DNA from: an uncultured Verrucomicrobiota bacterium
Lineage (GTDB): Bacteria; Verrucomicrobiota; Verrucomicrobiia; Palsa-1439
NCBI GenBank assembly: GCA_903825435.1
Contig: CAIKAP010000117.1
Coordinates: 1 to 60,018, forward strand
Reading direction: 5' to 3'
DNA length: 60,018 nt
The notes below the pieces were generated by a model. The model made no database searches, had not been told where the DNA came from, and saw only the letters and a program-made list of their open reading frames with translations. Positions 7,176 through 49,271 of the stretch are shown piece after piece (within the stretch, counting starts at the first letter, position 1; each line of letters opens with the position of its first letter). Position numbers and translations under genes: made by a program.

Positions 7176-7194
7176 TGTTCCGGTTTTGTTCCGG
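7176..7194 (+). repeat. 19-bp direct-repeat motif, copy 1 (perfect), intergenic
   Basis: TGTTCCGGTTTTGTTCCGG between the convergent GDSL and carB-C genes. Confidence 0.9.
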
Positions 7195-7197
7195 CGG

Positions 7198-9003
7198 TCA
7201 ACGCCCTGCGCGGGCGTGATATTCCTGCAACGAGTGGACCTTCAGGCCGCGCTCGCGCAGCGTTTTGATGCCGAGCGCCGCCGCCTTCGCGCCGGCCAGC
7301 GTTGTCATGATCGAGATGCGATGTAGGACGGCGGCGGTGCGGATCTTCACTTCGTCCGAGCGCGGCGTCTTACCGGCAGGCGTGTTGATGATGAGTTGGA
7401 CTTCGCCGTTCTTGATCAGGTCGAGAACGTTTGGTCGGCCTTCCTGAACTTTGAAGAGTCGCTGGACGGTCAGCCCGGTCTTCTCCAACACTTCGGCGGT
7501 GCCGTCGGTCGCACAAATGGTGAAGCCGAGGTCGGCGATATCCTTCGCGATCTTCGCGGCGTGTGGCTTGTCGGAGTCGCGGACGCTGATGAAGACCTTG
7601 CCGCCGGTTGGCAACGCGGGCTGGGCGGCCATCTGCGATTTCGCGTACGCCATACCCCAATCGCGTCCGATGCCCATGACTTCGCCGGTCGAGCGCATTT
7701 CGGGGCCGAGCAGGATGTCCTGGCCGGGGAACTTGCTGAACGGGAAAACAGATTCCTTCGCGGAGAAATATTTCGGCCAGATTTCCTCGGTGAACCCAAG
7801 CTCGGTCAGCTTCTTGCCCGTCATCACCTTCGCCGCCAACTTCGCCAGCGGATGGCCGATGGCTTTACTGACGAACGGCACGGTGCGCGAAGCGCGCGGA
7901 TTAACTTCGAGCACCCAAACGTCCTTGCCCTTGACAGCGAACTGTACATTCATCAACCCGGCGACGCGCAGCTCGCACGCCATCTCGTGTGTGTACCGGC
8001 GCATCGTTTCGATCTGGCTCTTACCAAGCGAGTGCGGCGGCAACACCATTGCCGCGTCGCCGCTATGGCAACCGGCAAACTCGATATGTTCCAGGAAGCC
8101 GCCGATGACAATCGTCTCGCCGCCAACGCCGATATCGGCGATGCAATCCACGTCCACCTCGATGGCTTCCTCAAGGAACTTGTCCACGAGCACGGGCCGT
8201 TCCGGCGACGCCTCGACGGCGTGGCGCATGTAGTAACGGAGTTCCTCGTCGGAATAAACAATCTGCATCGCGCGTCCGCCGAGCACAAACGACGGGCGGA
8301 CAAGCACCGGGTAGCCGAGCCGCTTTGAGGCGATGAGCGCTTCTTCTTCGTTCGTCGCAAGGCCGTTCGGTGGCTGCGGGATGCCGAGCTTGTCGAGCAT
8401 CGCGGCGAAAAGTTTCCGGTCCTCGGCGATCTCGATGCTCTGCGGCGTGGTACCGATGATGTTGACGCCGTTCTTCTGGAGGCCGAGCGCGAGGTTCAGC
8501 GGCGTCTGGCCGCCGAATTGCGCGATGGCACCCCAGCAACCTTCCCGTTCGTAAATGTGGAGCACATCTTCGAGCGTGAGCGGTTCGAAATAAAGTTTGT
8601 CGGAAGTGTCGTAGTCGGTCGAGACGGTCTCGGGGTTGGAGTTGACCATGATGGTCTCGAAGCCGAGTTCCTTAAGGGCAAACGCCGCGTGGACGCAGCA
8701 GTAATCAAACTCGATGCCCTGGCCGATGCGGTTCGGGCCGCCGCCGAGGATCATGACTTTCTTCTTTTTGGTCTTGCGGACCTCGTCGTCGCCGGTGTCG
8801 TAGGTGGAATAATAATATGGTGTGTACGCCTCGAACTCGGCGGCACAGGTGTCCACGAGCCGGTAGCTCGGCACGAGGCCAAGCTCCTTGCGCAACGCGC
8901 GGACCTCGTCCTCGGTCGAGCCGACCAGTTGCGCGATCTGCCGGTCGGAGAACCCGAGGGACTTCGCTCTTGCCAACAATGATTTTGTTTTCTCGCTCGC
9001 CAT
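7198..9003 (-). CDS. carB: Carbamoyl-phosphate synthase large subunit, C-terminal part (split gene)
   Basis: AKSLGFSDRQIA, VDTCAAEFEAYTPYYYSTY, GGGPNRIGQGIEFDYCCVH, EVNPRASRTVPF, MGS domain. Confidence 0.95.
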   Translation of the reverse strand: MASEKTKSLLARAKSLGFSDRQIAQLVGSTEDEVRALRKELGLVPSYRLVDTCAAEFEAYTPYYYSTYDTGDDEVRKTKKKKVMILGGGPNRIGQGIEFDYCCVHAAFALKELGFETIMVNSNPETVSTDYDTSDKLYFEPLTLEDVLHIYEREGCWGAIAQFGGQTPLNLALGLQKNGVNIIGTTPQSIEIAEDRKLFAAMLDKLGIPQPPNGLATNEEEALIASKRLGYPVLVRPSFVLGGRAMQIVYSDEELRYYMRHAVEASPERPVLVDKFLEEAIEVDVDCIADIGVGGETIVIGGFLEHIEFAGCHSGDAAMVLPPHSLGKSQIETMRRYTHEMACELRVAGLMNVQFAVKGKDVWVLEVNPRASRTVPFVSKAIGHPLAKLAAKVMTGKKLTELGFTEEIWPKYFSAKESVFPFSKFPGQDILLGPEMRSTGEVMGIGRDWGMAYAKSQMAAQPALPTGGKVFISVRDSDKPHAAKIAKDIADLGFTICATDGTAEVLEKTGLTVQRLFKVQEGRPNVLDLIKNGEVQLIINTPAGKTPRSDEVKIRTAAVLHRISIMTTLAGAKAAALGIKTLRERGLKVHSLQEYHARAGR

Positions 9004-9011
9004 CGCGCGCG

Positions 9012-9051: not shown

Positions 9052-9858
9052 CTATTTGATGACGATCTGCGCAAGGTCGGGCGGCGGCTTTGGCAGGCGC
9101 GGGTCCATTTCCTCCAGCGCCTCGACGATGATCTGCGAGACGGCGAGGTTGCGGAACCACTTCTTGTTGGCCGGGATGACGAACCACGGCGCCGTCTTCG
9201 TGCTGCACGCGCCCAGCGCGTCCTCGTAGGCCCGCTGGTACTCCTTCCAGCAACGACGTTCCGCCGCGTCGGCCGGCGTGATTTTCCAGTTCTTCGCCGG
9301 GTCGTCCACGCGCGACAGAAGGCGGCGACGCTGTTCGTCCTTGCTGATGTGCAGGAAGAATTTCAACACGCGCGTGCCGGTCGCGTTGAGGAACCCCTCG
9401 AATTGGTTGATCTGCTCGTAGCGCGCCGACCAGACACTCTTCGGCACGAGGTTATGGACGCGCACAACTAGCACGTCCTCGTAGTGCGAGCGGTTGAAGA
9501 GGCCAATCTCGCCGCGCGCCGGGACGGCCTTGTGGATGCGCCAGAGAAAATCGCGTCCACGCTCCTCCGCCGACGGCACTTTTAACGCCGTCACACGGCA
9601 ACTTTGCGGGTTCAAGCCGGTCATCACGTGACGAATGGTGCCGTCCTTGCCTGCGGCGTCCATGCCTTGCAACACGATCAGCAGCGAACGTTGTCCCTCG
9701 GCGTATAATCGGTATTCGAGTTCCGCCATCCGCGTGATGTTGCGCCCCAGTAACTCCTGCGCGTCGTCCTTCTTCAAGTCCGCCGTGTCATTCGCGTCCC
9801 AGTCTGCCAGTCGCACCTTGCTGCCTGGAGAAATGCAAAGCTTCTTAGTAAAGTTCAT
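9052..9858 (-). CDS. ppk2: Polyphosphate kinase 2 family protein (polyP:nucleotide phosphotransferase, class III-like)
   Basis: LQGMDAAGKDG Walker A, DFLWR, FNRSHYEDVLVVRV, KFFLHISKDEQ, APWFVIPANKKW. Confidence 0.93.
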   Translation of the reverse strand: MNFTKKLCISPGSKVRLADWDANDTADLKKDDAQELLGRNITRMAELEYRLYAEGQRSLLIVLQGMDAAGKDGTIRHVMTGLNPQSCRVTALKVPSAEERGRDFLWRIHKAVPARGEIGLFNRSHYEDVLVVRVHNLVPKSVWSARYEQINQFEGFLNATGTRVLKFFLHISKDEQRRRLLSRVDDPAKNWKITPADAAERRCWKEYQRAYEDALGACSTKTAPWFVIPANKKWFRNLAVSQIIVEALEEMDPRLPKPPPDLAQIVIK

Positions 9859-9902: not shown

Positions 9903-9921
9903 TGCTCCGTTTTTGTTCCGG
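9903..9921 (+). repeat. 19-bp direct-repeat motif, copy 2 (2 mismatches), intergenic
   Basis: TGCTCCGTTTTTGTTCCGG just past the carB-N stop codon. Confidence 0.75.
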
Positions 9922-9925: not shown

Positions 9926-11392
<1,467 letters not shown>

Positions 11393-11406
11393 GGTGTCGG
11401 GGACAG

Positions 11407-11435
11407 ACCTTATGACAGGGATTGCTTCCATTCAA
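11407..11435 (-). promoter_or_regulatory. Putative sigma70 promoter of carB N-part
   Basis: TTGAAT-N17-TAAGGT, 14 nt upstream of ATG 11392. Confidence 0.55.
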
Positions 11436-11504: not shown

Positions 11505-14500
11505 ATGAAACAATCCCTTCTTTGCCTGAGCCTTCTCATCGCCCAACTCACTGCCTTCGCCGCCGGGCCGCGCGATGCGCAATGGAAAAAAGTTGACGAG
11601 GCCGTCAACAAAGGTCTGCCGAAGACCGCCATCGAGGAGTTGGCACCGATCATCACCGGCGCGATGGCCGACAAAGCGTACGCCGAGGCGATCAAAGCCA
11701 TCGGCAAAAAAATCGCGTACGAAGGTAATATCCAAGGCAACAAGCCGGAAGAGAAAATTTTCCGGATGCAGGCCGAGCTGGAGAAGGCGACCGCCGAGAT
11801 GAAGCCGGTGATGGAAGCGATTATCGCGCATTGGTACTGGCAATATTTCCAACAGAACCGCTGGCGTTTCATGCAGCGCACGCAAACCGCCGCCGCACCG
11901 GGCGCAGACATCCAGACTTGGGACCTCGCGCGAATCCTTGCCGAGATTGATAAACATTTTACCGTCGCGCTCGCGAGCGAAAAAATTCTGAAGGCCACGC
12001 CCGTCACCGACTACAACGATCTTATCGCGAAAGGCAGCGTGCCGGACTGTTATCGTCCGACGATGTTTGATTTCCTCGCGTACGAGGCGCTGCAATTTTA
12101 CCAAGCCGGTGAACAGGCCGCGACGAAAGCAGAGGACGAGTTTGAACTCGACGCGACGACGCCGATTTTTGCCGACGCTGACGAGTTCATGAATTGGCAA
12201 CCGGCGACGACGGACGAAACTTCGGTGGCATTGAAAGCAATCCGTCTCTACCAAAATCTGCTGAAATTCCACCGTGTTGACGGCGACAACAGCGCGTTTA
12301 CCGATACCGACCTCGCGCGAATCCAGTTCGGCTACAATAAAGCCGTCGGCGAAAATAAAACCGACCGGTATAAATCCGCGCTCCAGCGTTTTATTGATGC
12401 GAACGCGAAGCATGAAGTCTCCGCCCGTGCCATTGCCGCGCTGGCCGAACAAATCAACCAAGACGGCGAGCCTGCGAAGGCGTACGAACTCGCCAAGCGC
12501 GGTCTCGATGCATTTCCGAAATCGGCGGGCGGCGCGATGTGTTTCAATCTTATCAAGCAGATCGAATCGAAGTCCGCTGGCCTCGACACCGAGCGCGTTT
12601 GGAACGAGCCGTGGCCGACGCTCAACGTCAACTACCGGAACATCACGAAAGTTTATTTCCGCGCCGTGTCGGCGAACTTCGACGACTACGTCACGCGCAC
12701 GCGCTGGGGCTTCGGCAACTTCGACGACGACCAACGCAAAAAACTTTTCGCCGCTGCGCCGGTGCTCGAATGGAGCGCCGACTTGCCGCCGACAAAAGAT
12801 TACAAGCAGCGCACGGAAAAACTACCGTCACCAACTTCGCTCAAGCCGGGCTTTTATTTTATCGTCGCCAGCCACGACAAATCGTTTGGCGAAAAAGAAA
12901 ATCAAGTCAGCGTTGCCGCGGTTTGGGTCAGCGACCTTGCGCTCGTGATGCAGTTGCGTCACGACGGCAAACCGCACAGTGGTTTTGTTCTAAAAGCCAA
13001 CAGCGGCATGCCGGTCGGCGGTGCGGCGATCCGGATTTGGCAGCGCGACCGCGAAGGTTGGTTCAAGCCGGTCGCGCCAGCGAAGACTGACGAGAACGGA
13101 CGGTTCGAGTTCTCGGTCAAGGACAACAATAATATTATGATGCTCGCCGAGTACGATGGTCAGGCGGTTTCGAGCAGCCACGAGTTTTGGAACCTTGGCA
13201 ACGGCGACCGGAACAAAACCGGAACACAAACCATCTTTTTCACCGACCGCGCGCTCTACCGGCCGGGGCAGACGATTTCTTACAAAGGCATTTGTCTGAA
13301 GTACGATCACGGCATCGCGAACTACGAAACGATTGCCGGACAAAAACTCACGGTTGTGTTTCACGATCCGAACCGCAAGGAAATCGCCCGCACCGAACTC
13401 AAGTGCAATGACTACGGCGCGTTCAGTGGCAGTTTCACCGCGCCGCGCGACCGCGTCATGGGGCAGATGCAATTGATGGTTCACGGCGGCCCGCACGGCA
13501 GCACTCATTTCAGCGTCGAGGAATATAAACGCCCGAAATTCCAGGCCGAACTCAACGCGCCCGTCGAGTCGGCGAAGCTCGACGCGACGGTAAATCTTAC
13601 CGGCAAAGCGACGGCGTACACCGGCGCGGCGATTGGCGGAGCGAAAGTAAAATGGCGCGTCGAACGCGGCGTGCAATGTCCGTTCTGGTGTTGGTGGTGG
13701 CAACCGCCCGCCGTCAAAGCCGTCGCGCACGGCACCGCTGTCACGGAACCGGACGGAACTTTTAAGATTACTTTTACCGCCGAGCCGGACCGCTCCGTGC
13801 CGGTGAAGAATGAGCCGGTGTTTACATTTACCATCAACGCCGACGTGACCGATTCGACCGGCGAGACGCGTTCCGCCAGCCGGACGGTGCGCGCCGGTTA
13901 CACGGCATTACAGGCGTCGGTCGCGGCGGACGAATGGCAGACGCCGGATAAACCGGTTGAGTTTACCGTCGAAACGAAATCGCTCGACGGCGATCCGCAA
14001 CCGGCGAACGGCGACGTGACAATTTACGCGCTCAAACAACCGGCGAAAGTCGAGCGCGCGGTGTTATTGGGCGAATATTATCGGTGGGGCCGCGACGGCG
14101 ACGAGCCGAAATCCGATCCGGCGAATCCGGATTCGTGGGAACTCGGCAAAGTCGTTGCGGAAAAATCTTTCAAGACCGACGCGACCGGCAAGACGCAGGT
14201 CAGCGCGAAGTTGAAAGCCGGTATTTACCGCGCGTCGCTGGAGACGAAGGACCGGTTCGGTAAAAAAGTCAGCGCGCGATTGACGTTGCAGGTGGTGGAT
14301 CCACGCGAACGACATTACCCGGTAAAACTGGCGAATCGTTTCGCCGCGCCGAAATGGTCGGTCGAGCCGGGAGAAAAATTTGTCGCACTCTGGGGCAGCG
14401 GCTACGACACGGGCCGCGCGTTTGTCGAGTTGGAGTACGACGGTAAAGTGTTGAAGAGTTATTGGACGGCGAGCAACCGGACGCAGGAACTCGTCGAGCA

Positions 14501-17500
14501 AGCCGTCGGCGAGGAGATGCGCGGCGGGTTGACGTTGCGCGTCACGTTTGTGCGCGAGAACCGCGCTTATTTTAATGAGCGCGTCGTGGACGTGCCGTGG
14601 TCGAACAAGAAGCTCGCGTTGAAGTGGGAAAGTTTCCGCTCGAAGCTGATGCCCGGTCAGAAGGAAACGTGGACGGCAGTCGTGACCGGTCCCGACGCGA
14701 AACGCGCCGCCGCGGAAATGGTCGCGACACTTTACGACGCGTCGCTCGATCAATATTTGCCGCACAACTGGCCGCAGGCGTTCGGCGTGTTCCGGCAGGA
14801 GTATAACCGGGTCAACGGCGAGTTTCAGAATGCGAAGCTCGATTTCCAGCATATTCAAGGTTGGTGGCAGACGCCGTCGCGCGGTGTGGATTGGAATTAC
14901 CGCGCGTTTCCGCAAGATGTCATCGCGAATCTCTGGGGCTACAGTTATTTTAGTGGCCGCAGAGACGCCCACAACAGTCTTCGGATGATGGCAAAAGGCG
15001 AAGCGATGGAATCCAACGGCGCAATGCTGATGTCCGACGCCGCCATGCCACATGCCGCTGCTGCGCCAGCGGCGTTCGGTGGCATGATGGAACAACAGCA
15101 AGCCAAGCGCCGCGAATTCGTAGATGAACGCATAGCTGTTGATAAACAGGCCGGTGGTGCGAGTGCTGGTGAACCCGGAGCCGCGCCCGCACCCGATCTC
15201 AGCAAAGTCGTCGCGCGAAAAAATCTGAACGAGACCGCGTTCTTTTTCCCGCAACTGCTCGCGGGCGACGATGGTGTTGTGAAGATGGTGTTCACGATGC
15301 CGGAGGCGTTGACGGAATGGAAGTTCATGGGCTTCGCTCACGACAAGCAGCTTCGCGCCGGTTTTCTGACCGACAAAACAGTCACAGCCAAAGACCTGAT
15401 GGTCGAGCCGAACCCGCCGCGTTTTGTGCGTGAAGGAGACGCGATTGAGTTTACCGTCAAAGTCAGCAACCAGTCCGCCGAACGCCAAGCCGGTAAGATC
15501 AGCCTAACATTTGCCGATGCGCGAACACTTGAGTCGCGCACGGGGCGGGTTGGCGAGGATTCCAATCACATAGTCGTCAACTTTACGCCGGAACAGCAAT
15601 TTGATGTACCGCCAAAAGAATCACGCACATACTCGTGGCACGTCTCGATCCCGGATGGATGCGAGTTCCTGACGTACAAGGCTGTCGGCGCGACTGCGAA
15701 GCTCAGCGACGGTGAGGAAGGTTTCCTGCCGGTGCTGAGCCGGAGAATTTTGGTGACGGAATCATTGCCGCTGCCGATTCGCGGCAAAGCGACGAAGCAG
15801 TTCGACTTCAAAAAACTTTTGGAGTCCGGTAAATCCGACACGCTCCGCAATCAATCGTTGACGGTGCAGATGGTGTCGCAGCCCGCGTGGTACGCGGTGA
15901 TGGCGTTGCCGTATTTGATGGAGTATCCTTACGAGTGCAGCGAGCAGACGTTCAACCGGCTTTACGCCAATGCGCTCGCGCGTCACATCGCCAACTCCGA
16001 TCCGAAGATTCGTCGCGTGTTCGATCTCTGGAAAGGGACGCCCGCGCTCGACAGCCCGCTGGAAAAAAATCAGGACTTGAAATCGGTGATGCTCGAAGAA
16101 ACTCCGTGGCTCCGTCAGGCGATGGCCGAGAGCCAGGCGCGCAAGAACGTCGGGATTTTATTCGACGCCAACCGGCTCGACGACGAAACGGCGCGCGGAT
16201 TGCGCAAGCTCTCGGAGATGCAGTTGAGCGATGGTTTGTGGCCGTGGTTCCCCGGCGGTCGGTCGAGCGAGTATATCAGTCTTTATATTACGACCGGCTT
16301 CGGACGATTGCGGCATCTCGGCGCGGAGATTGACGTGAAGCCCGCGATCAAATCGCTCAACGCGCTCGATGCGTGGATGGATGATCATTACCGGCATATT
16401 CTCAAACTGCCGCACCCGGAGGAATACGTGCCGAGTTATACCGACGCGTTTTATTTGTACGGTCGGAGTTTCTTCCTCAAAGATCGGCCTATCGCGAAAC
16501 AATATCAGGAGGCCGTGGATTTCTTCCTGCGCCAGTCGCGGAAATTCCGGTTGAAGGTGGATTGCCGTCAAAGCCAGGCACATCTTGCCATCGCGTTACA
16601 AAGATTCGGCGACAAGGAAACGCCGCTCGACATCATGAAGTCCATCAAGGAGCGCAGCGTCAGCAACGAAGAACTCGGCATGTTCTGGCGCGAGACGGAA
16701 TTAAGTTGGTGGTGGTATCGCGCGCCGATTGAAACGCAGGCGATGATGATAGAAGCGTTCGCCGAGGTGATGAACGACGCGCAAGCCGTCGAAGATTGTA
16801 AAGTCTGGCTTCTGAAACAAAAACAGACGCAAGACTGGAAGACGACGAAAGCGACCGCCGACGCGATTTACGGCCTCCTGCTGCGCGGCGTCAACATGCT
16901 CGCCAGCGACGCGCTCGTCGAAGTCGCGCTCGGCGGCGAGACGATCAAACCGGAGCACGTCGAAGCCGGTACCGGTTTCTACGAACAGAAATTCGTCCGC
17001 AACGAAATCAAACCGGCGATGGGCGAAATCACGGTGAAGAAAGTGGACGAAGGCGTTAGTTGGGGCAGCGTCCACTGGCAATACCTCGAAGACATGACCA
17101 AGGTCACACCGCACGAAGGCACACCGTTGAAATTGAAGAAGACGCTCTGGATCAAGGAGACATCGAAGAAAGGTCAGGAGTTGAAGCCCGTGACCGACCC
17201 GCTCGCCGTCGGCGACGAGTTGGTTGTCCGCATCGAACTCCGCACCGACCGCGACATGGAATATGTCCATCTCAAAGACCAGCGCGGCAGCGGCACCGAG
17301 CCGGTGAATGTATTAAGCCGGTATAAATTCCAAGACGGCCTCGCGTATTATGAAAGCACGAAGGACACCGCGAGCCACTTCTTTATAGATTATCTGCCGA
17401 AAGGAATCTATGTCTTCGAGTACAGCACGCGCGTCCAACTGAAGGGCAAGTACCAGACCGGCATCGCCGAAATTCAGAGCATGTACGCACCGGAATTCAA

Positions 17501-18618: not shown

Positions 18619-19103
18619 GTGACAAGAAGCCGGAGTTGTTTTTGCCGGAGGAACCAACGGAGTTCGCCGTGACCAGCGCGCAATTCGCTGATCTCGACGC
18701 ACGCGACGCTGGCTTTGCCCATCGAAAGCGCGGCGGCATTCTCCGAGCCGAGCAATCCGGCAAGATGCTCCGCAAAACTCGGCATGTGCCCGACGAGTAC
18801 AACTTCCTTCGCGCCATCGAAAGTTTTTACAACGTGAAGAACATCGGCCAGTGTGCCGTCGTTGGAGAGTTCGTCGAACACGGCGATTTCGTTTTGGAAT
18901 TTCAGTTCGCGCGCGATGATGTCGGCGGTTTGCCGCGCGCGCGTGAGCGGGCTGGTGAGAACTTGTTCCGGTTTTGCTCCGGCTTTGAAAAGCGCAGTGC
19001 CGACGATGCGGGATTCCTCGCGCCCCTCCTTCGTCAACTCGCGCTCGGCATCGCTCGGAGCAATGTCGGAAGCGCTGGCATGACGAACAAGATAAAGCTT
19101 CAT
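18615..19103 (-). CDS. sixA: Phosphohistidine phosphatase SixA
   Basis: [30 protein letters not shown]. Confidence 0.9.
18964..18982 (+). repeat. 19-bp direct-repeat motif, copy 4 (1 mismatch), inside sixA
   Basis: TGTTCCGGTTTTGCTCCGG; encodes A-G-A-K-P-E-Q. Confidence 0.85.
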
Positions 19104-22099: not shown

Positions 22100-22137
22100 C
22101 TGGAAACTAGGCAGGGACTATGGTAAAAGAAAGTGCC

Positions 22138-26054: not shown

Positions 26055-26073
26055 CCGGAACAAAACCGGAACA
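26055..26073 (-). repeat. 19-bp direct-repeat motif, copy 5 (perfect), at the left edge of the low-GC patch
   Basis: CCGGAACAAAACCGGAACA on + strand. Confidence 0.9.
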
Positions 26074-26636: not shown

Positions 26637-26655
26637 GTATTGTTACGCGACCTGT

Positions 26656-27075: not shown

Positions 27076-27093
27076 GAACTGTCTCCTTACTTT

Positions 27094-29085: not shown

Positions 29086-29107
29086 ACTTTTACTTTTCAA
29101 TTCTTAA

Positions 29108-31493: not shown

Positions 31494-32444
31494 TCATTCC
31501 TTTCTTGCGATCACAATCGAGTTCATCCATTCATCCCGGCGCGCCAGCGTCACACCGAAAAAACCAGCCGCCTCCAAATCCTCCCGCAGCTCCGCCAGCG
31601 TGAACGTCCCGCCGCCTTCCGTCGCGACCAGCATGTTCACCGCGAACAGCGCGCCCGACACCGGCGCCGTCCGCGACCGCTCCATCACGATGTCGCGGAT
31701 CGCGATCCGTCCGCCCGGCACGAGCGCGCGGCGCGCTTTAGCGAACAACGCCCGGTTCTGCGCCCGCGAATTCTGGTGCACAATCGCGCTGACCCAAACC
31801 AAATCCGCGCCACTCGGCAACTTATCCCGGTAAAAATCCCCCGCCACAAATTTCACCGGCAATCCCGCCAACCGCCGACGCGCCAGCGGAATCACCGGCG
31901 ACAAATCGAACAGCGTCGCCGTCGCGCCCGGGTTCGCGCGCAGCAACGCCACCGTCCACGTGCCCGACCCGCCGCCGACATCCAGCAGCTTCCGGCATTT
32001 CAGTCCGCGAACCACGGCGTCGGCACACGCCTCGTTGATGACGTGCATCGCCCCGATGAACGACTCGCGGTCCCCCACGGCGCCCCGCACGCTCGGTTTT
32101 TGTTCCGGTTTTGTTCCGGACCGGACGGTACAAGCCAGTTCCGCCCACCGGCGCAGACAATTCGCCTGGTGCTGGAGCATCGGCAGAGTCTTCTGGACGC
32201 TCACCGCAACGTCGCGCGGCACGGCGTAACGGTCGCCGCGTTTCGACAACAACCGCAACGCCGCCAACGCGTCGAGCAGGATCGCCGTCGCGCGCACGTC
32301 GCACTTCAGCTTCCGCGCCACCTCGCGTGCCGTAAGCGGGCGCAGCGCGAGCGCGGCGAACACGTCGAGTTCCGCCGCCGCGCCGAGAACGCAGGCGGCC
32401 TGGTACTGGCGCATCATCAATTCGAGAATCGAGTCAGGGTTCAT
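31494..32444 (-). CDS. SAM-dependent O-methyltransferase (dimerisation domain + Methyltransf_2)
   Basis: AAAELDVF, LLDVGGGSG, ATLFDL, AGDF, SAIVH, ALVPGGRI. Confidence 0.92.
   Translation of the reverse strand: MNPDSILELMMRQYQAACVLGAAAELDVFAALALRPLTAREVARKLKCDVRATAILLDALAALRLLSKRGDRYAVPRDVAVSVQKTLPMLQHQANCLRRWAELACTVRSGTKPEQKPSVRGAVGDRESFIGAMHVINEACADAVVRGLKCRKLLDVGGGSGTWTVALLRANPGATATLFDLSPVIPLARRRLAGLPVKFVAGDFYRDKLPSGADLVWVSAIVHQNSRAQNRALFAKARRALVPGGRIAIRDIVMERSRTAPVSGALFAVNMLVATEGGGTFTLAELREDLEAAGFFGVTLARRDEWMNSIVIARKE
32101..32119 (+). repeat. 19-bp direct-repeat motif, copy 6 (perfect), inside the methyltransferase gene
   Basis: TGTTCCGGTTTTGTTCCGG; encodes S-G-T-K-P-E-Q. Confidence 0.9.
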
Positions 32445-33333: not shown

Positions 33334-34343
33334 CAGGTCAACGACGGCGGGTTCGCCTTGTCGCCGCCCTCGATCTGGGCGAGCTTGGCATCGAGCTTGG
33401 TCAGTGATTTTTCCGAGTCAGCATAGGCGCCGGTGGCGTTGGTGAGGTGTTTGCCGACGAGCCGGAAGTTTTCCTCGAACCGCTCGAAGTCGCCGCGCAA
33501 CCGCTGGAGCGTGACGAGGATTTCGTTGGCGCGCAGCTCGACTTGCAGGCCGCGCAATCCGAGCAGGACCGTCTGGAGATACGCGTAGAAACTGTTCGGC
33601 GAGACCGGGATGACGCGCCGCTGGAGCGCGTAGCTGAACAGTTCGTGCTCTTCACCGGCGTCCTGCTTGATGATGGTCTCGTAGTAAACGTTCTCCGCCG
33701 GGACGTACATCAGCGCGAAGTCGTACGTCCCCTCGTCCGGCAGGATGTACTTCGTCGCGATGGCGTCCACGTGTTTGCGGACGTCCTTCAGGAATTGTTT
33801 GCGCGCGGCGGCGCGGTCGGCGTCATTGGCGGATTCAACGACCCGCCGGAAGTTTTCGTACGGGAACTTGGCGTCAACGGGGACGAGGCGTTCGCCGATG
33901 CAAATGGCGGCGTCCACTTTCTCGCCGCTCTTGAAGGCGTGCTGGAGCCGGTAATGTTCCGGCGGCAGGATCTGCGAGAGGAGATCGCCGAGAAAGAGTT
34001 CGCCCATGCCGCCGCGCAGTTTCGGCGCCCGCATGATATTCACCAACTCCGCCGCCGCTTTGCCAACCTCGTGGATCTGGCCGACTTTCTCGCGGAGATC
34101 GCCGACGACCTTCGCGGCATTGTCGAGACGCGTATTCATCGAGGATGTGGATTGCTGGAGATTTTCCGCAACGGTTTGGCCGAAGGCGTCGATCCGCTGC
34201 TGGAGCGCACTGAGCTGCTGCTGCATTATCAACAGCGATTGGTCTGGTGTTTGAGATCTGTTCCGCTCGCGCAGGAACACCACCAGCACCACCACAACCA
34301 CAGCAAGCGTCAGCACACTAAGAACAATGGCAACAACTTCCAT
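33333..34343 (-). CDS. rmuC: DNA recombination protein RmuC
   Basis: N-terminal TM and coiled coil, PKLRGGMGE, VDAKFP, IATKYI, TYDFALMYVPAE, VSPNS. Confidence 0.92.
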   Translation of the reverse strand: MEVVAIVLSVLTLAVVVVVLVVFLRERNRSQTPDQSLLIMQQQLSALQQRIDAFGQTVAENLQQSTSSMNTRLDNAAKVVGDLREKVGQIHEVGKAAAELVNIMRAPKLRGGMGELFLGDLLSQILPPEHYRLQHAFKSGEKVDAAICIGERLVPVDAKFPYENFRRVVESANDADRAAARKQFLKDVRKHVDAIATKYILPDEGTYDFALMYVPAENVYYETIIKQDAGEEHELFSYALQRRVIPVSPNSFYAYLQTVLLGLRGLQVELRANEILVTLQRLRGDFERFEENFRLVGKHLTNATGAYADSEKSLTKLDAKLAQIEGGDKANPPSLT

Positions 34344-35429: not shown

Positions 35430-36377
35430 ATGAAACGCGTGTTGCTAGTCATCCTGTTGCTCAGTGCTGTCGGAGGCGCTTATTGGTTGCTCACCCGGAA
35501 CACGCCCGGAACACAAGTTGTGTCGGGCACCATCGAGACCGACGAGGCACACGTCGCATCGCGCTATGGTGGACGCGTCGTCGCGCTGTACGCACAGGAA
35601 GGTGACTCGCTAACCAACGGTCAACCCATCGCCGACCTCGACGCTGCCGAACTGCAAACGCAGCGAGCCCAGGCCGACGCAGCGTTGCTGGAGTTGGTGA
35701 ACGGGCCGCGCACCAACGAGATCGCCTCCGCCCGCCACGATTGGGAATCGGTACAAGCCGACTTGGCGCTCGCCATCACGGAGTCGAAACGAGCGGTCGA
35801 ATTGTTCGAGAAAAATGTGATCCCGGTTGAGGATCGCGACCGCGCTGTCTCTCGTGTCCAGACCCTCGAAGCGCGCGTCAGCGGCGCAAAGGCGCACTTG
35901 GACCTATTGATCGAGGGGACGCGGCAAGAGACCATCGCCAACGCGCGGGCCCGTCTCGCTGAGATTGACACGAGGCTGCGCGAGATGCTCGTTATCGCAC
36001 CGGGCAATTGTTCGCTGGAAGTGCTCAGCGTGAAAGTCGGCGACGTGTTGCCACCCAACCGAGAGGTGGCGACATTGCTGATCACCGGCCATCTCTGGGT
36101 GCGCGTCTACGTGCCGGAGTTGTGGCTCAGCCACATCAAGATCGGCGACAAGGCTCGCATCCACGCCGACGGACACGACCGCGAGTTTCAAAGCGTCGTC
36201 GAACAAATTAACCGCCAAGCCGAGTTTACGCCGCGCAACGCCCAAACCGTCGAGGACCGTGTCCGTCAGATGTTCGGCGTGAAGATCCGCCTGCCGAGCG
36301 ACACCGGCGTCTTGAAAGCCGGCATGAGTGTGGACGTTGCGTTTGCTAACGTCCCACCGCCGCCATCACCGAAATGA
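35430..36377 (+). CDS. HlyD-family membrane-fusion protein
   Basis: N-terminal TM, SGTIE, EGD, coiled coil, WVRVYVPE, AEFTPRNAQT, LKAGM. Confidence 0.92.
   Translation: MKRVLLVILLLSAVGGAYWLLTRNTPGTQVVSGTIETDEAHVASRYGGRVVALYAQEGDSLTNGQPIADLDAAELQTQRAQADAALLELVNGPRTNEIASARHDWESVQADLALAITESKRAVELFEKNVIPVEDRDRAVSRVQTLEARVSGAKAHLDLLIEGTRQETIANARARLAEIDTRLREMLVIAPGNCSLEVLSVKVGDVLPPNREVATLLITGHLWVRVYVPELWLSHIKIGDKARIHADGHDREFQSVVEQINRQAEFTPRNAQTVEDRVRQMFGVKIRLPSDTGVLKAGMSVDVAFANVPPPPSPK
35495..35513 (-). repeat. 19-bp direct-repeat motif, copy 7 (both 8-mers perfect, different spacer), inside the HlyD gene
   Basis: CCGGAACA-CGC-CCGGAACA on + strand. Confidence 0.75.
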
Positions 36378-40605: not shown

Positions 40606-40607
40606 CC

Positions 40608-41918
40608 ATGAACCGACGACAACTTCACTGGCTGTACCAGGAACTGCCGAACCTCGTAAGTTCCGGTATTGTTCCGGCCGAAACTGCAGACCGAATCCGC
40701 AAACACTATGGCGACATTGACGCGCAAGGCAGCGGCCGGCACTGGCTCATCATTCTGTTCGCGATCATCGGCGCGGCGTTGATTGGTGGCGGGATCATCC
40801 TGCTGCTGGCACACAACTGGGATGAGATGTCGCGTCCCGCGCGCGCGGCGATCTCGCTGGCACCGATGCTGATCACGCAGGCGCTCGCGGCATGGGTGTT
40901 GTGGACGCGCGCCGAGAGCACGGCTTGGCGCGAAGGTGTCGGGACATCGTTGACACTGGCAATTGGGACTTCAATCGCGCTGATCTCGCAGACGTACAAC
41001 CTCGGCGGGACATTCCCGCAGTTCATGTTGGTGTGGACGCTGCTGGCGTTACCAGTGGCGTACCTGCTGCGGGCAACGTTGCCGTCGCTTTTGTACCTGA
41101 TCGGCGTGACGGTGTGGAGCGGTTCGGTGATGAACGAAGGCTCAAAGTCGCTCTGGTTCTGGCCGCTGGTGGCGTTGGCGTTGCCGTACCTGTGGATGGT
41201 GGCGAAAGAGAACCGTTATCACCCGCGGCCATTGCTGTTCTGCTGGGTGTTGAGCATCGTCGGCGCAATCGGGACCGGGTTCGGCGCACACAGGCTGCTG
41301 GACGAGCATTCATGGTGGATCGTGTTGTTCGCCGGGTTGTACGCGGTGTGGTGGCTGGTCGGGTCGCGCTGGTACGGCGAGGCGGCAAGTGTGTTGCAGC
41401 GTCCGTTCCAGATTATCGGAGGACTGGGGCTGTGGGTATTGTCGCTGGTGCTGACGTTCTCGGATCCGTGGCGTGCGCTCGGTCATCCCTTTTGGTACTC
41501 AGGCCCTTGGATGCAAACAGCCGAGTGGACGGCGGCTCTGGCGTGGCCCGTCGTTGCCATCGCGCTGTGGGTCGCGGCGTGGCGACGGCGCGAGACGTCG
41601 GAGCTGTTGCTAGGTGCGATACCGGTGTTCACCGTGATTGGGCAGGCGTTGGCCGCTCATAACCACGAAGTGACGGCGGCAGTCGTGTTCAATGTTTATG
41701 TGCTGGTGGTGGCCGTTGCGCTAATCACCAGCGGCGTGAAGGAACGGCGGTTGGGCGTGATCAACGCCGGGATGCTGCTGTTGTCGGCCCTGATTCTGTG
41801 CCGGTTCTTTGACGCGGACCTTGGATTCGTGGCTCGCGGGGTGGCCTTCATCGCGCTAGGAACCGGATTCCTCGTCACCAACCTCGTCCTGCTGCGGCGG
41901 AAAGGAGCGGCGCAATGA
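40608..41918 (+). CDS. DUF2157-type multi-pass membrane protein
   Basis: IGAALIGGGIILLLAHNWDEM, IALISQTYNL, CRFFD. Confidence 0.85.
   Translation: MNRRQLHWLYQELPNLVSSGIVPAETADRIRKHYGDIDAQGSGRHWLIILFAIIGAALIGGGIILLLAHNWDEMSRPARAAISLAPMLITQALAAWVLWTRAESTAWREGVGTSLTLAIGTSIALISQTYNLGGTFPQFMLVWTLLALPVAYLLRATLPSLLYLIGVTVWSGSVMNEGSKSLWFWPLVALALPYLWMVAKENRYHPRPLLFCWVLSIVGAIGTGFGAHRLLDEHSWWIVLFAGLYAVWWLVGSRWYGEAASVLQRPFQIIGGLGLWVLSLVLTFSDPWRALGHPFWYSGPWMQTAEWTAALAWPVVAIALWVAAWRRRETSELLLGAIPVFTVIGQALAAHNHEVTAAVVFNVYVLVVAVALITSGVKERRLGVINAGMLLLSALILCRFFDADLGFVARGVAFIALGTGFLVTNLVLLRRKGAAQ
40659..40677 (+). repeat. 19-bp direct-repeat motif, copy 8 (2 mismatches), inside the DUF2157 gene
   Basis: AGTTCCGG-TAT-TGTTCCGG. 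Confidence 0.7.
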
Positions 41919-43780: not shown

Positions 43781-44674
43781 ATGCAGATTGAGGCTCTCAA
43801 AATTTACGCCGACGTCGTCCGCCTCCGCAGTTTCAGCCGCGGGGCGGAGGCGAACGGCGTGTTGCAGTCGGCGGCCAGCCAGGCCGTGAACAGCCTGGAA
43901 CGGCAGCTCGGCGTGTCGTTGATCGACCGGTCGCACCGGCCGTTCGAGGTGACGCCGCAGGGGAAATTGTTTTACAACGGCTGCCGGGAGATCGTGGACG
44001 CGTACTCGGAACTGGAGGCGACGGTGCGCGGCGCGCACAAGAACGCGGACGCCGTGGTGTGCGTGGCTGCGATTTTCTCCATCGGCCTCGGCGACATGAG
44101 CCGGTACGTGCAGCAGTTTTCGCAGACGCATCCGCAGGCGCGGGTGCAACTGGAGTATCTCAATCCGGACCGCGTTTACGAGCGGGTGCTGGAGGAAGCG
44201 GTGGATTTCGGGATCGTCTCGTTCCCGCAACGGCGCAAGGAACTGGCGGTAATTCCGTGGCGCGCGGAGCCGATGGTGCTGGCGTGCCCGAAAGGACACC
44301 GTCTGGCGAAACGGCGCGCCGTCGCGCTCGGCGATTTGAACGGCGAAAAGTTTGTGGCGTTCGACAAGAATTTGGCGATCCGGCGCGAGGTTGACCGGTT
44401 GCTGCGAAAGGCGAAGGCGCGCGTCGAGGTGGCGATGGAGTTCGATAATATCGAGGCGATCAAACGCGCCGTCGAAGTCGGCGCGGGCGTCGCGATCCTG
44501 CCGGAGCCGACGCTGGCGCGCGAGGCGGCGTTGAAGACGCTGGCGGCGGTGCGGCTGGAGGGCGCGGAGTTTTCGCGTCCGCTGGGAATCATTCACCGTC
44601 GCGGCAAGAAGTTTTACCAGAACACGCAGGATTTTCTCGGACTGCTGTTGAAGAATGGAAAAGGACACAAGTAA
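43781..44674 (+). CDS. LysR-family transcriptional regulator
   Basis: SFSRGAE...[40 protein letters not shown]. Confidence 0.95.
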
Positions 44675-44675
44675 G

Positions 44676-47600
44676 ATGAACGTGAACCAGTGGCGCGCCC
44701 AAGGTTTGTACCACCCGCAATGGGAACACGACGGTTGCGGCGTCGGCTTCGTCGCCGACATCAAGGGGCGACGTTCCAGCAAGATTTTGCGCGACGCGTT
44801 GACGGTGCTCGTCAACCTGCGGCATCGCGGCGCGGCGGGCGCGGAACCGAACACGGGCGACGGCGCGGGCGTGTTGATGCAGTTGCCGCATGAGTACCTG
44901 AAGAAGAAGTCGGACCAACTCGGCATCGCGTTGCCGGGGCCGGGCGAGTACGGCGTCGGCATGATGTATTTACCGCCGCATCCGGCGGATCGGTACAAGT
45001 GCGAAAAACTTTTTGAGGAAATCGTCGAGCACGAAGGCCAGCGGTTTCTCGGCTGGCGCAGCGTGCCGACCGCCGACAGCAAGCTCGGCAAGACGGCGCG
45101 CATCGCACAGCCGATTATCCGTCAGGCGTTCATCGGGCGCAGCGCCGACATTACCGACGCGATGGCGTTCGAGCGGAAGCTGTACATCATCCGCAAGCTC
45201 GCCGAGAAAGGCATCCGCTATTCCACCATCAAAGGCGGCGACTGGTTTTACGTCGCGAGCCTGTCGAGTCGGACGATTGTGTACAAGGGGATGTTGATGT
45301 CGGAACAGTTGCAGGAATTTTATCCGGAGCTGAACGATCCCTCGATGGAAACGGCGCTGGCGCTGGTGCATTCGCGGTTCAGCACGAACACATTTCCGAG
45401 TTGGTATCGCGCGCATCCGTATCGTTACATCGCGCACAACGGCGAGATCAACACGCTCCGCGGCAACGTCAACTGGATGCGCGCCCGCCAGTCCATGATC
45501 GCCTCCGAGGTTTGGGGCGACGAGATCCGTAAACTTTTCCCGATCATCTGCGAGGACGGCAGCGACTCGGCGATGTTCGACAACGTGCTGGAGTTCCTCG
45601 TGCTCTCCGGGCGGTCGTTGCCGCACGCGATGATGATGATGATACCGGAGCCGTGGGAACATCACGAGTCCATGCCCGACGACAAACGCGCCTTCTACGA
45701 ATATCATTCCTGCTTGCAGGAACCGTGGGACGGTCCCGCGTCCGTCGCGTTTACCGACGGCGTCTGCATCGGCGCGTGCCTCGACCGCAACGGACTCCGC
45801 CCGTCGCGTTACTACGTCACCAAAGACGACCGCGTCATCATGGCCAGCGAAGTCGGCGTGCTCGACATCGCGCCAGAAAATATCGCGCACAAAGGGCGGC
45901 TTCAGCCGGGCCGCATGTTCCTCATTGACACGCGCGAGGGGCGCATCGTCGCCGACGACGAACTGAAACAGAAAATGGCGGACGAACATCCGTACCGTAC
46001 ATGGCTTACTAATAGTCTCGTCAAACTCGAACAACTTCCGGAGCCATCGCAAGTTCGCGAGTCGGATCACAAGACCATCGTCCGCCGCCAAAAGGCGTTC
46101 GGTTATACGTTCGAGGATTTGCGTTTGCTCATCGGCCCAATGGCGCGCGACGGCGTCCAGCCGCTCGGCGCGATGGGCAACGACGCGCCGCTCGCCGTGC
46201 TCTCGAACAAACCGCAGTTGCTCTACAGTTATTTCAAGCAACTCTTCGCGCAAGTCACCAATCCTCCACTCGACTGCATTCGCGAGGAGATTATTACCTC
46301 GACCGTCACCCGTCTCGGCTCCGAGGCGAACCTGCTACAACCGAAACCGTCGAGCTGCCGCGTCGTCGAGCTTCCGACGCCGATTCTCACCGAACAGGAA
46401 CTCGCCAAGCTCGAACATCTCGATCTGCCCGGCTTCAAGCCGGTCCGTCTGCCGATTCTCTTCAACGCCACCGACGGCGTTGCCGGCATGGAACGCGCGC
46501 TCGAAGAACTTTTCGCCACGGCCCGCAAAGCCATTCGCGACGGCCATAATCTCATCATACTTTCCGACCGCGGCGTTGACAAAGACCGCGCCGCGATACC
46601 GGCGTTGCTCGTCATCTCCGGACTGCACCATCATCTTATCCGCGACGAATTGCGGACCCGGTGCAGCATCGTGCTCGACTCCGGCGAGCCGCGCGAAGTC
46701 CATCACTTCGCGTTGCTCATCGGCTACGGCGCGAGCGCGATTTGTCCGTACCTCGCGTTTGAAACGCTCGACGACATGATCCGCGAAGGATTATTGCCCG
46801 ACATCGAACACAAGACCGCCGTTAAAAATTACGCCAAGGCCGTCGTCAAAAGCGTCGTTAAAACCATGGCCAAGATGGGCATCTCCACCATCCAGAGTTA
46901 TCGCGGCGCGCAAATCTTCGAAGCCGTCGGACTCAACCAGGCGTTCGTTGATAAATATTTTACATGGACCGCCACGCGCATCGAAGGCGTCGGCATCGAG
47001 GAAGTCGCGCGCGAAGTATTGGCGCGACACCACCACGCATTTCCCGAACGCGAAACCAACGGCGAAGCCCTCGACTCCGGCGGACAATACCAGTGGCGGC
47101 AGGACGGCGAGTATCACCTTTTCAATCCCGAAACCATCCACCTCCTCCAGACCGCCACCCGCACGCCGAGCTACGACGTCTTCAAACAATATTCCGCCGC
47201 CGTCAACAACCAGTCGAAACATCTCTGCACCTTGCGCGGCCTGCTCGACTTCAAGTTCGCCGCCGCGCCGATCCCTCTCGACCAAGTCGAGTCGGTTGAC
47301 AACATCGTCCGCCGTTTCAAGACCGGCGCGATGAGTTACGGTTCCATCAGCCAGGAAGCGCACGAAGCGCTCGCCATCGCCATGAACCGGCTCGGCGGCA
47401 AAAGCAACACCGGCGAAGGCGGCGAAGACCCCGCGCGTTACAAACCGGAACCGAACGGCGACTCCAAAAATTCCGCCATCAAACAAGTCGCGTCCGGACG
47501 TTTTGGTGTTACCAGCAATTACCTCGTCAACGCCCGCGAACTTCAGATCAAAATGGCGCAAGGCGCCAAACCCGGCGAAGGCGGCGAGTTGCCCGGTAAA

Positions 47601-49271
47601 AAAGTTTATCCGTGGATCGCCAAGACTCGCGGCACGACCGCCGGTGTCGGACTTATCAGTCCCCCACCCCATCACGATATTTATTCCATCGAAGACCTCG
47701 CCGAGTTGATCCACGATTTGAAGAACGCCAACCGCGCCGCCCGCATCAGCGTCAAGCTCGTCGCCGAAGTTGGCGTCGGTACCATCGCCGCGGGCGTCGC
47801 GAAAGCGCACGCCGACGTTGTCCTCATCAGCGGCCACGACGGCGGCACGGGCGCGTCGCCGCTCTCCTCGATCAAACACTCCGGCATCCCGTGGGAACTC
47901 GGCCTCGCCGAAACTCACCAGACGCTCGTCTTAAATAATCTCCGCAGCCGCATCGTTGTCGAGACAGACGGCCAACTTAAAACCGGCCGCGACGTCGCCA
48001 TCGCCGCGTTGCTCGGCGCCGAGGAATTCGGATTCGCCACCGGACCGCTCGTCACGCTCGGCTGCATCATGATGCGCGTCTGCCACCTCAACACCTGTCC
48101 CGTCGGCGTCGCCACACAAGACCCGCGCCTCCGCGCGCGGTTCACCGGCAAACCGGAGTACGTCGTCAACTTCATGCGATACATCGCGCAGGAACTCCGC
48201 GAAATCATGGCGCAACTCGGTTTCCGCACCATCAACGAAATGATCGGTCGCACCGACAAACTCGAATTGCGCAAAGCCATTGACCACTGGAAAGCGCGCG
48301 GTCTCGACTTCTCAAAAATTTTGTACCAACCCGAAGTCGAATCCGGAGTCGGGCGACATTGCAGCGACCGACAAGACCACGGCATCACCAATTCGCTCGA
48401 CGTGACGACGCTCCTGAAACTTTGCCAGCCCGCCATCGAGCGCGGCGAAAAAGTCTGCGCCACGCTCCCGATCCGCAACGTCAACCGCGTTGTCGGCACA
48501 ATCACCGGTAGCGAGATCACGAAAAAACACGGCCCCAACGGTCTCCCCGACGACACCATCGCGCTAAACTTTCACGGCAGCGCTGGCCAGAGCTTCGGTG
48601 CGTTCATCCCGAAAGGAATGACGCTGACGCTCGAAGGCGACGCCAACGATTACGTCGGCAAAGGACTCAGCGGCGGTAAGATCATCGTCTATCAGCCGCC
48701 ATGTTCCGGTTTTGTTCCGGAGGAAAATATCATCATCGGCAACGTCGCCTTTTACGGCGCGACCGACGGCGAAGCCTACATTCGCGGCATGGCGGGCGAA
48801 CGGTTCTGCGTCCGCAACAGCGGCGTCACCGCCGTCGCCGAGTCCGTCGGCGACCACGCCTGCGAATACATGACCGGCGGCCGCGTCGTCGTCCTCGGCG
48901 CGACGGGCCGCAACTTCGCTGCCGGAATGAGCGGCGGCGTTGCGTACATTTTCGACGAGCGCGGCGATTTCGCCACGCGCTGCAACCCGGCAATGGTCGC
49001 GCTGGAAAAATTAACCGACGCCGACGAGATCGCCGAACTGCGGCGATTGATCGAACGGCACGGTGATTACACCAAGAGCACGCGCGCGGGGAAAATTCTC
49101 GCCGAGTGGGACGCCAGCGTCCCGCGTTTCGTCAAGGTCATGCCGAAAGATTACAAACGCATCCTCGAATCGCTCGCGCGCGCGAAAGCCGCGGGACTCA
49201 GCGGCGACGAAGCCGTTGCCGCCGCGTTCGAGGAAAACGTCAAAGACATCAGCCGCGTCGGAGGAAACTGA
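44676..49271 (+). CDS. gltB: Glutamate synthase large subunit
   Basis: [70 protein letters not shown] domain; alternative start 44655. Confidence 0.98.
48702..48720 (+). repeat. 19-bp direct-repeat motif, copy 9 (perfect), inside gltB
   Basis: TGTTCCGGTTTTGTTCCGG; encodes C-S-G-F-V-P just before EENIIIGN. Confidence 0.9.

Follow-up and report, generated by a model that had tools for sequence, protein, structure and literature searches.

The question raised by the stretch of DNA analyzed here (the window, 60,018 nucleotides, which is contig C117 of the draft genome of an uncultured Verrucomicrobiota bacterium, GenBank assembly GCA_903825435.1) is why a 19-bp motif, formed by two direct copies of the 8-mer TGTTCCGG separated by three nucleotides, recurs every few kilobases both within genes and between them. 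An initial annotation, made from the sequence alone, had listed nine copies, five of them identical 19-mers with a TTT spacer, had placed three in intergenic DNA and six inside unrelated genes, and had proposed a genome-wide signal such as a DNA-uptake or self-recognition sequence, a nucleoid-organizing site or a set of decoys for a repressor. All nine coordinates and strands were found to be correct, including the five identical copies, and Pfam matches now back their placement: three copies (7176, 9903 and 26055) lie in short intergenic spacers and the other six inside genes. The window contains six exact matches to TGTTCCGG-N3-TGTTCCGG where 0.00 were expected from 100 shuffles, with a TTT spacer in five and GCG in one, and 10 matches at up to three mismatches, against 0.82 expected; the lone 8-mer occurs 22 times, against 2.6 expected. 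Altogether there are six exact and three near-exact true copies, where about none would be expected.

Across the whole genome (G000; a 242-contig draft of 3,434,657 bases with 58.6% G+C), 155 exact copies were detected, 83 on the forward and 72 on the reverse strand, together with 83 copies carrying one mismatch, 57 carrying two and 89 carrying three. An order-3 Markov null gave 0, 0.3, 3.3 and 49 for zero to three mismatches, respectively. At up to two mismatches the genome thus holds 295 copies against about 4 expected, and the expectation for the exact 19-mer is about 1e-4. These counts bore out the proposal of a genome-wide signal: the dispersed motif is a real and strong one, at the level of DNA.

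The consensus is (A)TGTTCCGG-WTT-TGTTCCGG(C), with 53% G+C. Spacers in G000 are mostly TTT (81), followed by AAA (25), ATT (19), CTT (8) and TAA (7), others being rare, and a logo of the 155 exact copies shows in addition an A at -1 in 102, a C at +19 in 92 and a G at +21 in 85, with no information outside about -8 to +21. When the contexts of the 295 copies were compared all against all with the motif masked, only a few pairs shared flanks (paralogues, contig-end overlaps, a shared terminator and two local duplications). Since neither shared flanks nor distant logo information were found, the motif is a short dispersed signal and not a longer repeat. In direct orientation, the 8-mer is paired 155 times with 11 bp between starts, and pairs at 10 or 12 bp are absent; none of its inverted arrangements is enriched in G000, and each single-base homodimer variant scores 0 or 1; all eight bases of each half are constrained, not GTTC alone. 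The 8-mer itself is present 645 times, 309 of them in exact pairs. This strict pairing at 11 bp indicated that the functional unit is the 19-bp pair and not the 8-mer, and the head-to-tail layout with one helical turn between half-sites, first suggested from the window, holds strictly throughout the genome. In the copies with one mismatch, the second half-site is better preserved (32 mismatches) than the first (51).

Three other genomes of the genus (G001, G002 and G003) contain 205, 34 and 1 exact copies, respectively, and a further 37 genomes, of which 21 represent other genera of the family, 2 the order and 14 the class, yielded none; a reversed-pattern control gave no exact match in any genome. 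At up to two mismatches, 466 copies were counted in G001, 138 in G002, 14 in G003 (control 4), 7 in the sister genus G005 (control 4) and 1 in G010 (control 1). The motif is restricted to one genus, within which copy number spreads about 30-fold among the four congeners (14, 138, 295 and 466). A scan for the exact 19-mer with one genome per species returned at least 64 stretches, 53 of them from two Verrucomicrobiota records of metagenome-assembled genomes (MAGs); the remaining 11 among the matches listed come one each from 11 unrelated records. The motif was also found in metagenome contigs with 75-85% identity to G000, some of which have three units in tandem. A 400-kb sample of G003 gave no over-represented 10-, 12- or 14-mer that could be an alternative word ("dialect"). 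In the literature searched, no published account of the motif or of uptake sequences in Verrucomicrobia was found.

Comparison with the congeners indicated how the copies arose. Fourteen sites of G000 could be aligned to the G003 sample with at least 30 bp aligned on both sides of the site, eight of them without any indel, and identity was 55.6% in the motif and 72.0% in the flanks. The motif thus comprises the most changed positions, as gain in the G000 lineage would predict; decay in G003 would have left about 72%. In gltB, about 8 of the 19 bases depart from the family state, all of them towards the motif and since the split from G002. The encoded peptide departs from the family consensus at this point: G000 has CSGFVPEE where the family has xGSTFVPEE, with the loss of a conserved Gly and a conserved Thr. 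Among 19 other genomes, S-T-F is found in 16 and G-S-T in 13, C-S-G is present in G000 alone, and the protein has the same length as in G000 in 18. In the SixA-like gene, the motif is exact at this position in one congener and missing from two. To assess conservation, 60 exact sites of the two congener MAG records were used as queries against G000: 38 matched and 17 aligned across the site. The 16 core bases are all retained in 12 of these 17 spanning alignments, and 14 or more of them in 15; identity is 94.4% within the motif and 80.7% over the ±100-bp flanks, although the 21 matches that do not span the site may hide lost sites, so that conservation may be overstated. Copies have been added stepwise along the lineage and then held at orthologous positions, and they have been written by point substitution, even at the cost of conserved residues.

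Genes were called with our own frame-periodic Markov gene finder; as its calls extend over 79% of the genome, some DNA counted as "intergenic" holds genes that were missed, and the shares given here are approximate. Of the 295 copies, 212 (72%) lie wholly in predicted genes, 80 in intergenic DNA and 3 on gene edges. All six frame classes are used (27, 19 and 47 copies on the strand of the gene; 44, 39 and 36 antisense), and the distribution along genes is flat. The initial view that protein coding cannot explain the copies was supported. Intergenic copies favor 3' ends: within 300 bp there are 64 near a 3' end (median 19.5 bp) and 43 near a 5' end (median 100 bp), and convergent spacers are about 2.4-fold enriched per kb. 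With most copies in genes, the motif does not mark a promoter regulon, nor SOS promoters in particular, in agreement with the initial annotation. Orientation with respect to the adjacent gene shows no bias (27 against 28), and with respect to GC skew polarity is weak (57:43). A polar motif of the type of Chi or of the FtsK-orienting polar sequences was rejected on account of this split and of the 19-bp pair as unit, and a role at the RNA level or as a terminator is unlikely, given the balanced orientation and the lack of Rfam matches at two loci. One cluster of three plus three inverted copies after a gene folds as a hairpin (-55.3 kcal/mol; z = -9.8), but such clusters are rare. At three loci (C197:13058, C41:20795 and C81:15827) the copy is followed by a common segment of about 45 bp, terminated by a GC-rich hairpin and, on the opposite strand, a T-run; a small terminator module shared by these three copies adjoins the motif. 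The genes beside multi-copy clusters are unrelated metabolic genes with no shared theme.

Spacing between copies is near random (coefficient of variation 0.94, against 1.0 for the null), with a slight excess of close pairs and no sign of even spacing. Among the 57 contigs that reach 20 kb, copy numbers follow a nearly Poisson distribution (chi-square 78.4, 56 degrees of freedom, p = 0.026), C81 being high, and no clear excluded domain was seen by contig, the draft state of the assembly (242 contigs) preventing a map of origin and terminus. Contig C89 (59 kb, 59.5% G+C) has no copy where 5.0 were expected (p = 0.007), and represents either a chromosomal domain devoid of the motif or an error of binning. 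Overall density is about 1 per 12 kb at up to two mismatches and 1 per 22 kb for exact copies, and it drops 3-5-fold where G+C is in the lowest decile and where bins have no native-type gene calls. The absence of copies from the accessory patches of the window, already noted from the sequence, thus has its counterpart in a genome-wide depletion in atypical DNA, which was probably acquired.

Known sites of similar layout point to the kind of protein that may read the motif. G000 contains a pstS-pstC-pstA ... phoU-phoB-phoR cluster, in which PhoB is encoded together with pstSCAB. About 30-70 bp upstream of pstS there are three units with an 11-bp period, two of them being CCGTAACA (C239:11205-11245), and Pho-box-like units paired at 11 bp were found in 9 of 17 pstS upstream stretches from several genera, such as CTGTAACA-N3-CTGTAACA in G011 and G026. 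Tandem C(C/T)GTAACA units with an 11-bp period upstream of pstS (loci L128-L143) are probably the Pho box of the family and class. The Pho-box half CCGTAACA matches the motif half CCGGAACA in 7 of 8 bases, and both sites share the 8+3+8 head-to-tail layout, the 11-bp period and an A/T-rich spacer; a TGTTACGG pair is the single-base Pho-box variant of the 19-mer. The differing base, however, is invariant in the Pho boxes seen (GTAACA), and in G000 TGTTAC-N5-TGTTAC occurs once (at pstS) and TGTTCC-N5-TGTTCC 198 times, with only 6 mixed pairs, which indicates two discrete classes of site. The recognition helix and wing of PhoB are the same in G000-G003, motif-rich and motif-poor species alike, and nearly so across the family, and no change in PhoB specificity tracking the motif was seen. 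G000 has only two OmpR-family proteins, PhoB and KdpE, of which PhoB alone has clear orthologues in G001-G003. In the kdp region, exact copies lie 46 bp upstream of kdpD and 35 bp after kdpE, and the copy upstream of kdpA has its orthologue in a congener record. KdpE was rejected as the reader, since KdpA and KdpD were found only in G000 among five genomes.

A second lead comes from mobile elements. A scan of viral contigs returned 91 stretches, mostly single hits, and a metagenome scan with a triple unit at least 120. Viral and metagenome contigs contain dense arrays of exactly TGTTCCGG with periods of 9-11 bp, often with an A at -1. At eight loci (Table 1) the array abuts the 3' end of a gene for a Toprim, DUF5906, VapE-like or D5 primase-helicase, and at one of them (L214) 14 units flank an AT-rich stretch. 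Of 10 metagenome open reading frames (ORFs) tested beside arrays, five are primase-helicases and the other five are unrelated or gave no hit. The arrangement resembles that of the satellite phage P4, whose record annotates "ori type 1 repeats" (GGTGAACA/TGTTCACC) in both ori and crr at a spacing of 10-11 bp, crr lying directly 3' of the alpha gene. The C-terminal winged helix of P4 alpha binds type 1 repeats. The likeness lies in octamers beginning with TGTTC at 10-11 bp, the P4 octamer sharing 5 of 8 bases with TGTTCCGG, and in TGTTCCGG arrays placed 3' of alpha-like genes, as crr is; the host copies differ in being isolated dimers dispersed in genes, with no AT-rich unwinding element. No alpha-like gene was found in G000-G003 or G005 with PF19263, PF05272, phrog_1139 or the L214 protein (no real hit), and tblastn with three C-terminal domains found nothing; since binning of MAGs often drops mobile elements, this absence proves nothing either way. 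By analogy, the Pho-box and iteron leads suggest a head-to-tail reader of winged-helix style.

The phage contigs with TGTTCCGG arrays (L198, L186/L190, L214, L219 and L246) range from 39 to 67% G+C. In L198 the array lies between primase-helicase and terminase genes, and in L219 just upstream of an ORF similar to the terminase large subunit, and some phage arrays may be packaging sites rather than origins. At least 35 contigs from one metagenome (Ga0126336_*, loci L285-L362; 36-47% G+C) contain arrays of 7-18 units of TGTTCCGGGG-type 10-11-mers, several of which end in a common flank, TTTTACAGACACC; these resemble a family of satellite-type repeats from an unrelated organism.

We consider it quite probable that the properties described above hold together with a first step in which a reader protein would bind the two 8-bp major-groove sites head-to-tail, one turn apart, across the A/T-rich spacer. 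PhoB on Pho boxes and origin-binding winged helices of the P4-alpha type on type-1 iterons bind in this manner, and the step is suggested by the strict geometry, the W-rich spacer, the likeness to the Pho box and the identical iterons beside alpha-like primase-helicase genes. What the reader would do is more tentative. Among the three functions proposed at the outset, uptake or self-recognition is ranked first, without our calling it probable: the motif may be a self-DNA tag comparable to the DNA uptake sequences (DUS) of Neisseria and other Neisseriaceae and the uptake signal sequences (USS) of Haemophilus and other Pasteurellaceae, spread by transfer-biased drive, a reading that we favor at somewhat less than even confidence. 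In a second step, tagged fragments of resident DNA would be preferentially taken up, or otherwise transferred, and then recombined, and this preferential transfer would give each copy a transmission advantage (molecular drive). Such drive would explain the gains against protein constraint, the conservation of individual sites, the depletion in foreign DNA and the spread in number among congeners, which together with the lack of polarity make up a DUS/USS-like signature. Like DUS and USS, the motif is a lineage-specific, over-represented word on both strands, in several frames of genes and in spacers near gene ends, conserved at orthologous positions, scarce in foreign DNA, unequal in number among relatives and written by substitution, and the inverted cluster that folds as a hairpin after a gene recalls a DUS pair. 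Genes for uptake and processing are present (ComEC, DprA, ComEA-type HHH_3, secretins and a PilT-like ATPase). The motif behaves like an uptake sequence, but its build is that of an iteron pair or of a response-regulator box.

Several points weigh against a self-DNA tag, in addition to the possible overstatement of conservation. Known DUS and USS are single asymmetric words of 9-12 bases, whereas the motif is a 19-bp tandem from another phylum, and a tandem A/T-spaced site is typical of a cytoplasmic regulator or a replication initiator, which fits the rival readings. The competence genes are found equally in motif-poor G003 and in outgroups and so lend no specific support, no uptake receptor was identified, and natural transformation in Verrucomicrobiota was not found in the literature searched. 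The density of about 1 per 12 kb is low: a preprint gives 1,200-3,100 copies per genome for the DUS dialects, about 5-10 times more than here, and at such a low density short fragments would seldom carry the tag. Neither a density of about 1 per kb nor frequent inverted pairs in terminators was found; about half of the DNA uptake enhancing sequences (DUES) lie in terminators, according to the same preprint, whereas here most copies are in genes and inverted pairs are rare. Nor did the G003 sample yield a sister dialect. It is possible, though rather doubtful, that the motif is the first uptake or transfer-recognition sequence outside the Proteobacteria, and one of a new kind: a "chromosomal iteron" pair read by a tandem winged-helix protein like those of phage and satellite primase-helicases. 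In the boldest version, an alpha-like replicon would fire or package from the sites and transduce the flanking host DNA, and the drive would then not be transformation.

Other explanations were weighed against the self-DNA tag. The motif could be an array of binding sites for a nucleoid-associated or chromosome-organizing host protein, or a sink that titrates a host regulator; each site would then persist through selection on cell function and not through drive. We regard this as unlikely, although the tandem geometry with its A/T spacer is typical of cytoplasmic DNA-binding proteins, the sites are found in genes in any frame, are conserved between species and show no transcription-related orientation, and their stability over about 20% divergence means that the reader must be a long-term host component. 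Noc, SlmA and MatP likewise have specific binding sites scattered through genes without a role in transcription, but these (NBS, SBS and matS) are palindromes present in tens of copies, family-wide and regionally patterned, and the motif is a direct repeat with hundreds of copies in one genus and, as far as the draft assembly allows this to be seen, no regional pattern. A copy number that ranges from 14 to 466 would be odd for a core cell-cycle function, near-Poisson counts without a clear excluded domain do not fit an organizer (a test limited by the draft assembly), and no candidate protein emerged, the OmpR family in G000 being limited to PhoB and KdpE. Moreover, where 300 sites are interchangeable, selection on any single one should seldom override protein constraint; GltB has nevertheless lost its Gly and Thr. 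An improbable alternative is that the copies are chromosomal versions of mobile-element iterons, serving either as decoys that would titrate or handcuff the origin-binding domains of P4-alpha-like primase-helicases from invading phages, satellites or plasmids, a defense of the incompatibility type, or as pseudo-origins or pseudo-pac sites of such an element, through which neighboring host DNA would be over-replicated, packaged and transduced, so that the drive would be based on transduction. The arrays of the identical 8-mer at eight loci and their P4-like layout speak for it, and the absence of an alpha-like gene from the five genomes would fit the exclusion of such elements. Neither the element nor its reader was found in the genus, however; the host copies are strict 11-bp dimers and not arrays with an AT-rich unwinding region; half of the tested ORFs next to metagenome arrays are not primase-helicases; the link is one of DNA likeness only; a phage would escape decoys by a few changes while the host would need hundreds of substitutions, which makes decoys too slow and too easily escaped; and the stability of sites across species argues for a stable host reader.

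The directional change towards the motif in gltB, the graded and lineage-specific signal and the weak orientation excess relative to GC skew (57%) could also be produced by a sequence-specific bias of mutation, repair or templated conversion, the finished sites having no protein-binding function; very-short-patch repair is known to skew words in Escherichia coli. We hold this to be very unlikely, because the logo is shaped like a protein-binding site, with two equal half-sites and an A/T spacer, no machinery for such a bias was found, and we know of no repair system that recognizes 16 specified bases as a strict tandem repeat. There is an equally slim, if anything slimmer, chance that the copies are additional Pho-box-like sites of PhoB, acting as a sink or as an expanded regulon. 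The likeness of the pstS box of the lineage, the location of the gene in the pst-pho cluster and its standing as the regulator shared by the four congeners favor PhoB; the two discrete site classes with their invariant differing base, the unchanged recognition helix and wing, the hundreds of dispersed copies away from promoters and the case of G003, which has PhoB and almost no copies, argue against it. The initial annotation had also remarked that the core equals GTTC-N7-GTTC, described in PMC8565304 as the LexA direct repeat of Alphaproteobacteria. This fit of the core stands; the alphaproteobacterial frame was not supported, since the host belongs to the Verrucomicrobiota and the LexA DNA-binding domain PF01726 was detected in none of the four genomes of the genus (86-96% complete), a search that was positive in the single genome of sister genus G005 and in 10 of 14 reference genomes. 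With the full 8-mer constrained and the copies away from promoters as well, LexA boxes or LexA decoys are close to refuted. Finally, an 8-mer, three bases and an 8-mer superficially resemble a target duplication with a footprint, and two insertions, a kdp island and a small cassette (see below), lie between direct repeats that start with a copy of the motif. For the bulk of copies, an origin as a miniature mobile element or as the footprint of an excised transposon is nevertheless refuted: flanks are not shared, motif-free orthologues have equal length, and the copies inside genes keep the frame, which an 11-bp insertion would break. The judgment that the motif is not a miniature inverted-repeat transposable element was thus upheld by the origin of its copies through substitution.

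Uptake tags are a textbook case of molecular drive shaping a whole genome. An uptake-like evolutionary signature is now seen in an uncultured Verrucomicrobiota bacterium, with an architecture that points to a different reader; according to the abstract of a preprint, uptake-type genome tags are known from two proteobacterial families only. Since one genus presents the motif at four stages (14, 138, 295 and 466 copies), the order of events and the gene of the reader should be directly accessible to comparative genomics. The exact identity with iterons of P4-alpha-like replicons offers a testable link between origin recognition in mobile elements and genome-wide signals of the host. In addition, with 16 fixed bases and no chance background, the tag is a near-unique marker, useful to assign metagenome contigs to the genus and to flag acquired DNA.

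Table 1. Copies of the 19-bp motif in the window, with the state of the matching position in congeners, and loci at which arrays of the 8-mer adjoin primase-helicase genes.
Feature	Position or loci	Strand	Context	State in congeners
Exact copy, spacer TTT	7176..7194	+	Fills the 28-bp stop-to-stop gap between a GDSL-lipase gene (ends 7169) and the carB C-half (7198-9003, -)	Matching carB C-half flank in G001, G002 and G003 without motif; synteny breaks here
Degenerate copy, 2 mismatches, both in first half-site	9903..9921	+	Between the PPK2 start (9858) and the carB N-half stop (9926)	Motif absent from matching flank in G001-G003; PPK2 located elsewhere in G002 and G003
Exact copy	13208..13226	-	Within alpha-2-macroglobulin-family gene (11505-17537, +)	Exact in G001 and G002, 2 mismatches in G003; flanks about 76% identical
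1-mismatch copy	18964..18982	+	Within His_Phos_1 (SixA-like) gene (18615-19103, -)	Exact in G001; motif-free in G002 and G003
Exact copy	26055..26073	-	38 bp downstream of lipoate-ligase-family gene (25357-26016); edge of atypical patch 26.1-29.1 kb	In G002 and G003 PPK2 gene directly after lipB, motif-free
Exact copy	32101..32119	+	Within O-methyltransferase gene (31494-32444, -)	No blastn alignment of the gene region to G001-G003
Exact copy, spacer GCG	35495..35513	-	Near 5' end of HlyD-family gene (35430-36377, +)	In G001 one half-site retained and part of the second
1-mismatch copy (first base A)	40659..40677	+	Near 5' end of DUF2157 gene (40572-41918, +)	Identical 19-mer in G001; motif absent in G003, no indel
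Exact copy	48702..48720	+	Within gltB (44655-49271), encodes C-S-G-F-V-P	
Primase-helicase-adjacent arrays	viral L198, L186, L214; metagenome L316, L313, L300, L336, L284			

Of the copies in the window, those at 7176, 9903, 26055 and 48702 were seen in G000 only among the four congeners compared, and those at 18964 and 40659 have a counterpart in G001 only. The match at 33944..33962 (+), with three mismatches, was rejected as a copy, being a coding half-site that is near-identical (1-2 bases) in G001-G003. The pilT reported in the initial annotation corresponds to a gene for a PilT-like ATPase identified by Pfam at 22120-23223. The atypical patch (26148-29100) is motif-free and was missed by the native-trained gene model; it encodes a 668-amino acid ankyrin-repeat protein and contains two small ORFs with little or no Pfam match. 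The carB gene, which encodes the large subunit of carbamoyl-phosphate synthase, is split into an N-half ORF of 501 amino acids (9926-11431, -) and a C-half ORF of 601 amino acids, with the PPK2 polyphosphate-kinase gene (9052-9858, -) between them. The two halves are about 30 bp apart in G002 and on separate contigs in G003, and in both genomes PPK2 directly follows the lipB-like gene.

Several copies lie exactly at rearrangement junctions. Those at 7176, 9903 and 26055 coincide with synteny breaks relative to G001-G003, including the move of PPK2 from lipB to its position between the carB halves. Since the ancestral junctions in G002 and G003 are motif-free, the copies are not old recombination sites; new junction DNA may simply acquire copies fast, or copies may promote or accompany insertion. 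On contig C81 (31503-42910), an 11.3-kb block with kdpFABC, a BsoBI-type restriction enzyme with a DNA methylase, and kdpDE is bounded by 64-bp direct repeats composed of the motif plus 45 bp; this unit reaches 97% identity in a congener record, against about 82% for the flanks there. On contig C194 (9368-10330), a 0.85-kb insert with two small ORFs lies between diverged copies of a segment of about 110 bp, each with the motif at its start and the 3' end of the neighboring gene within it. This region had no match in Rfam. Its identity in G003, 91%, far exceeds what is normal for the genome and suggests a recent transfer.

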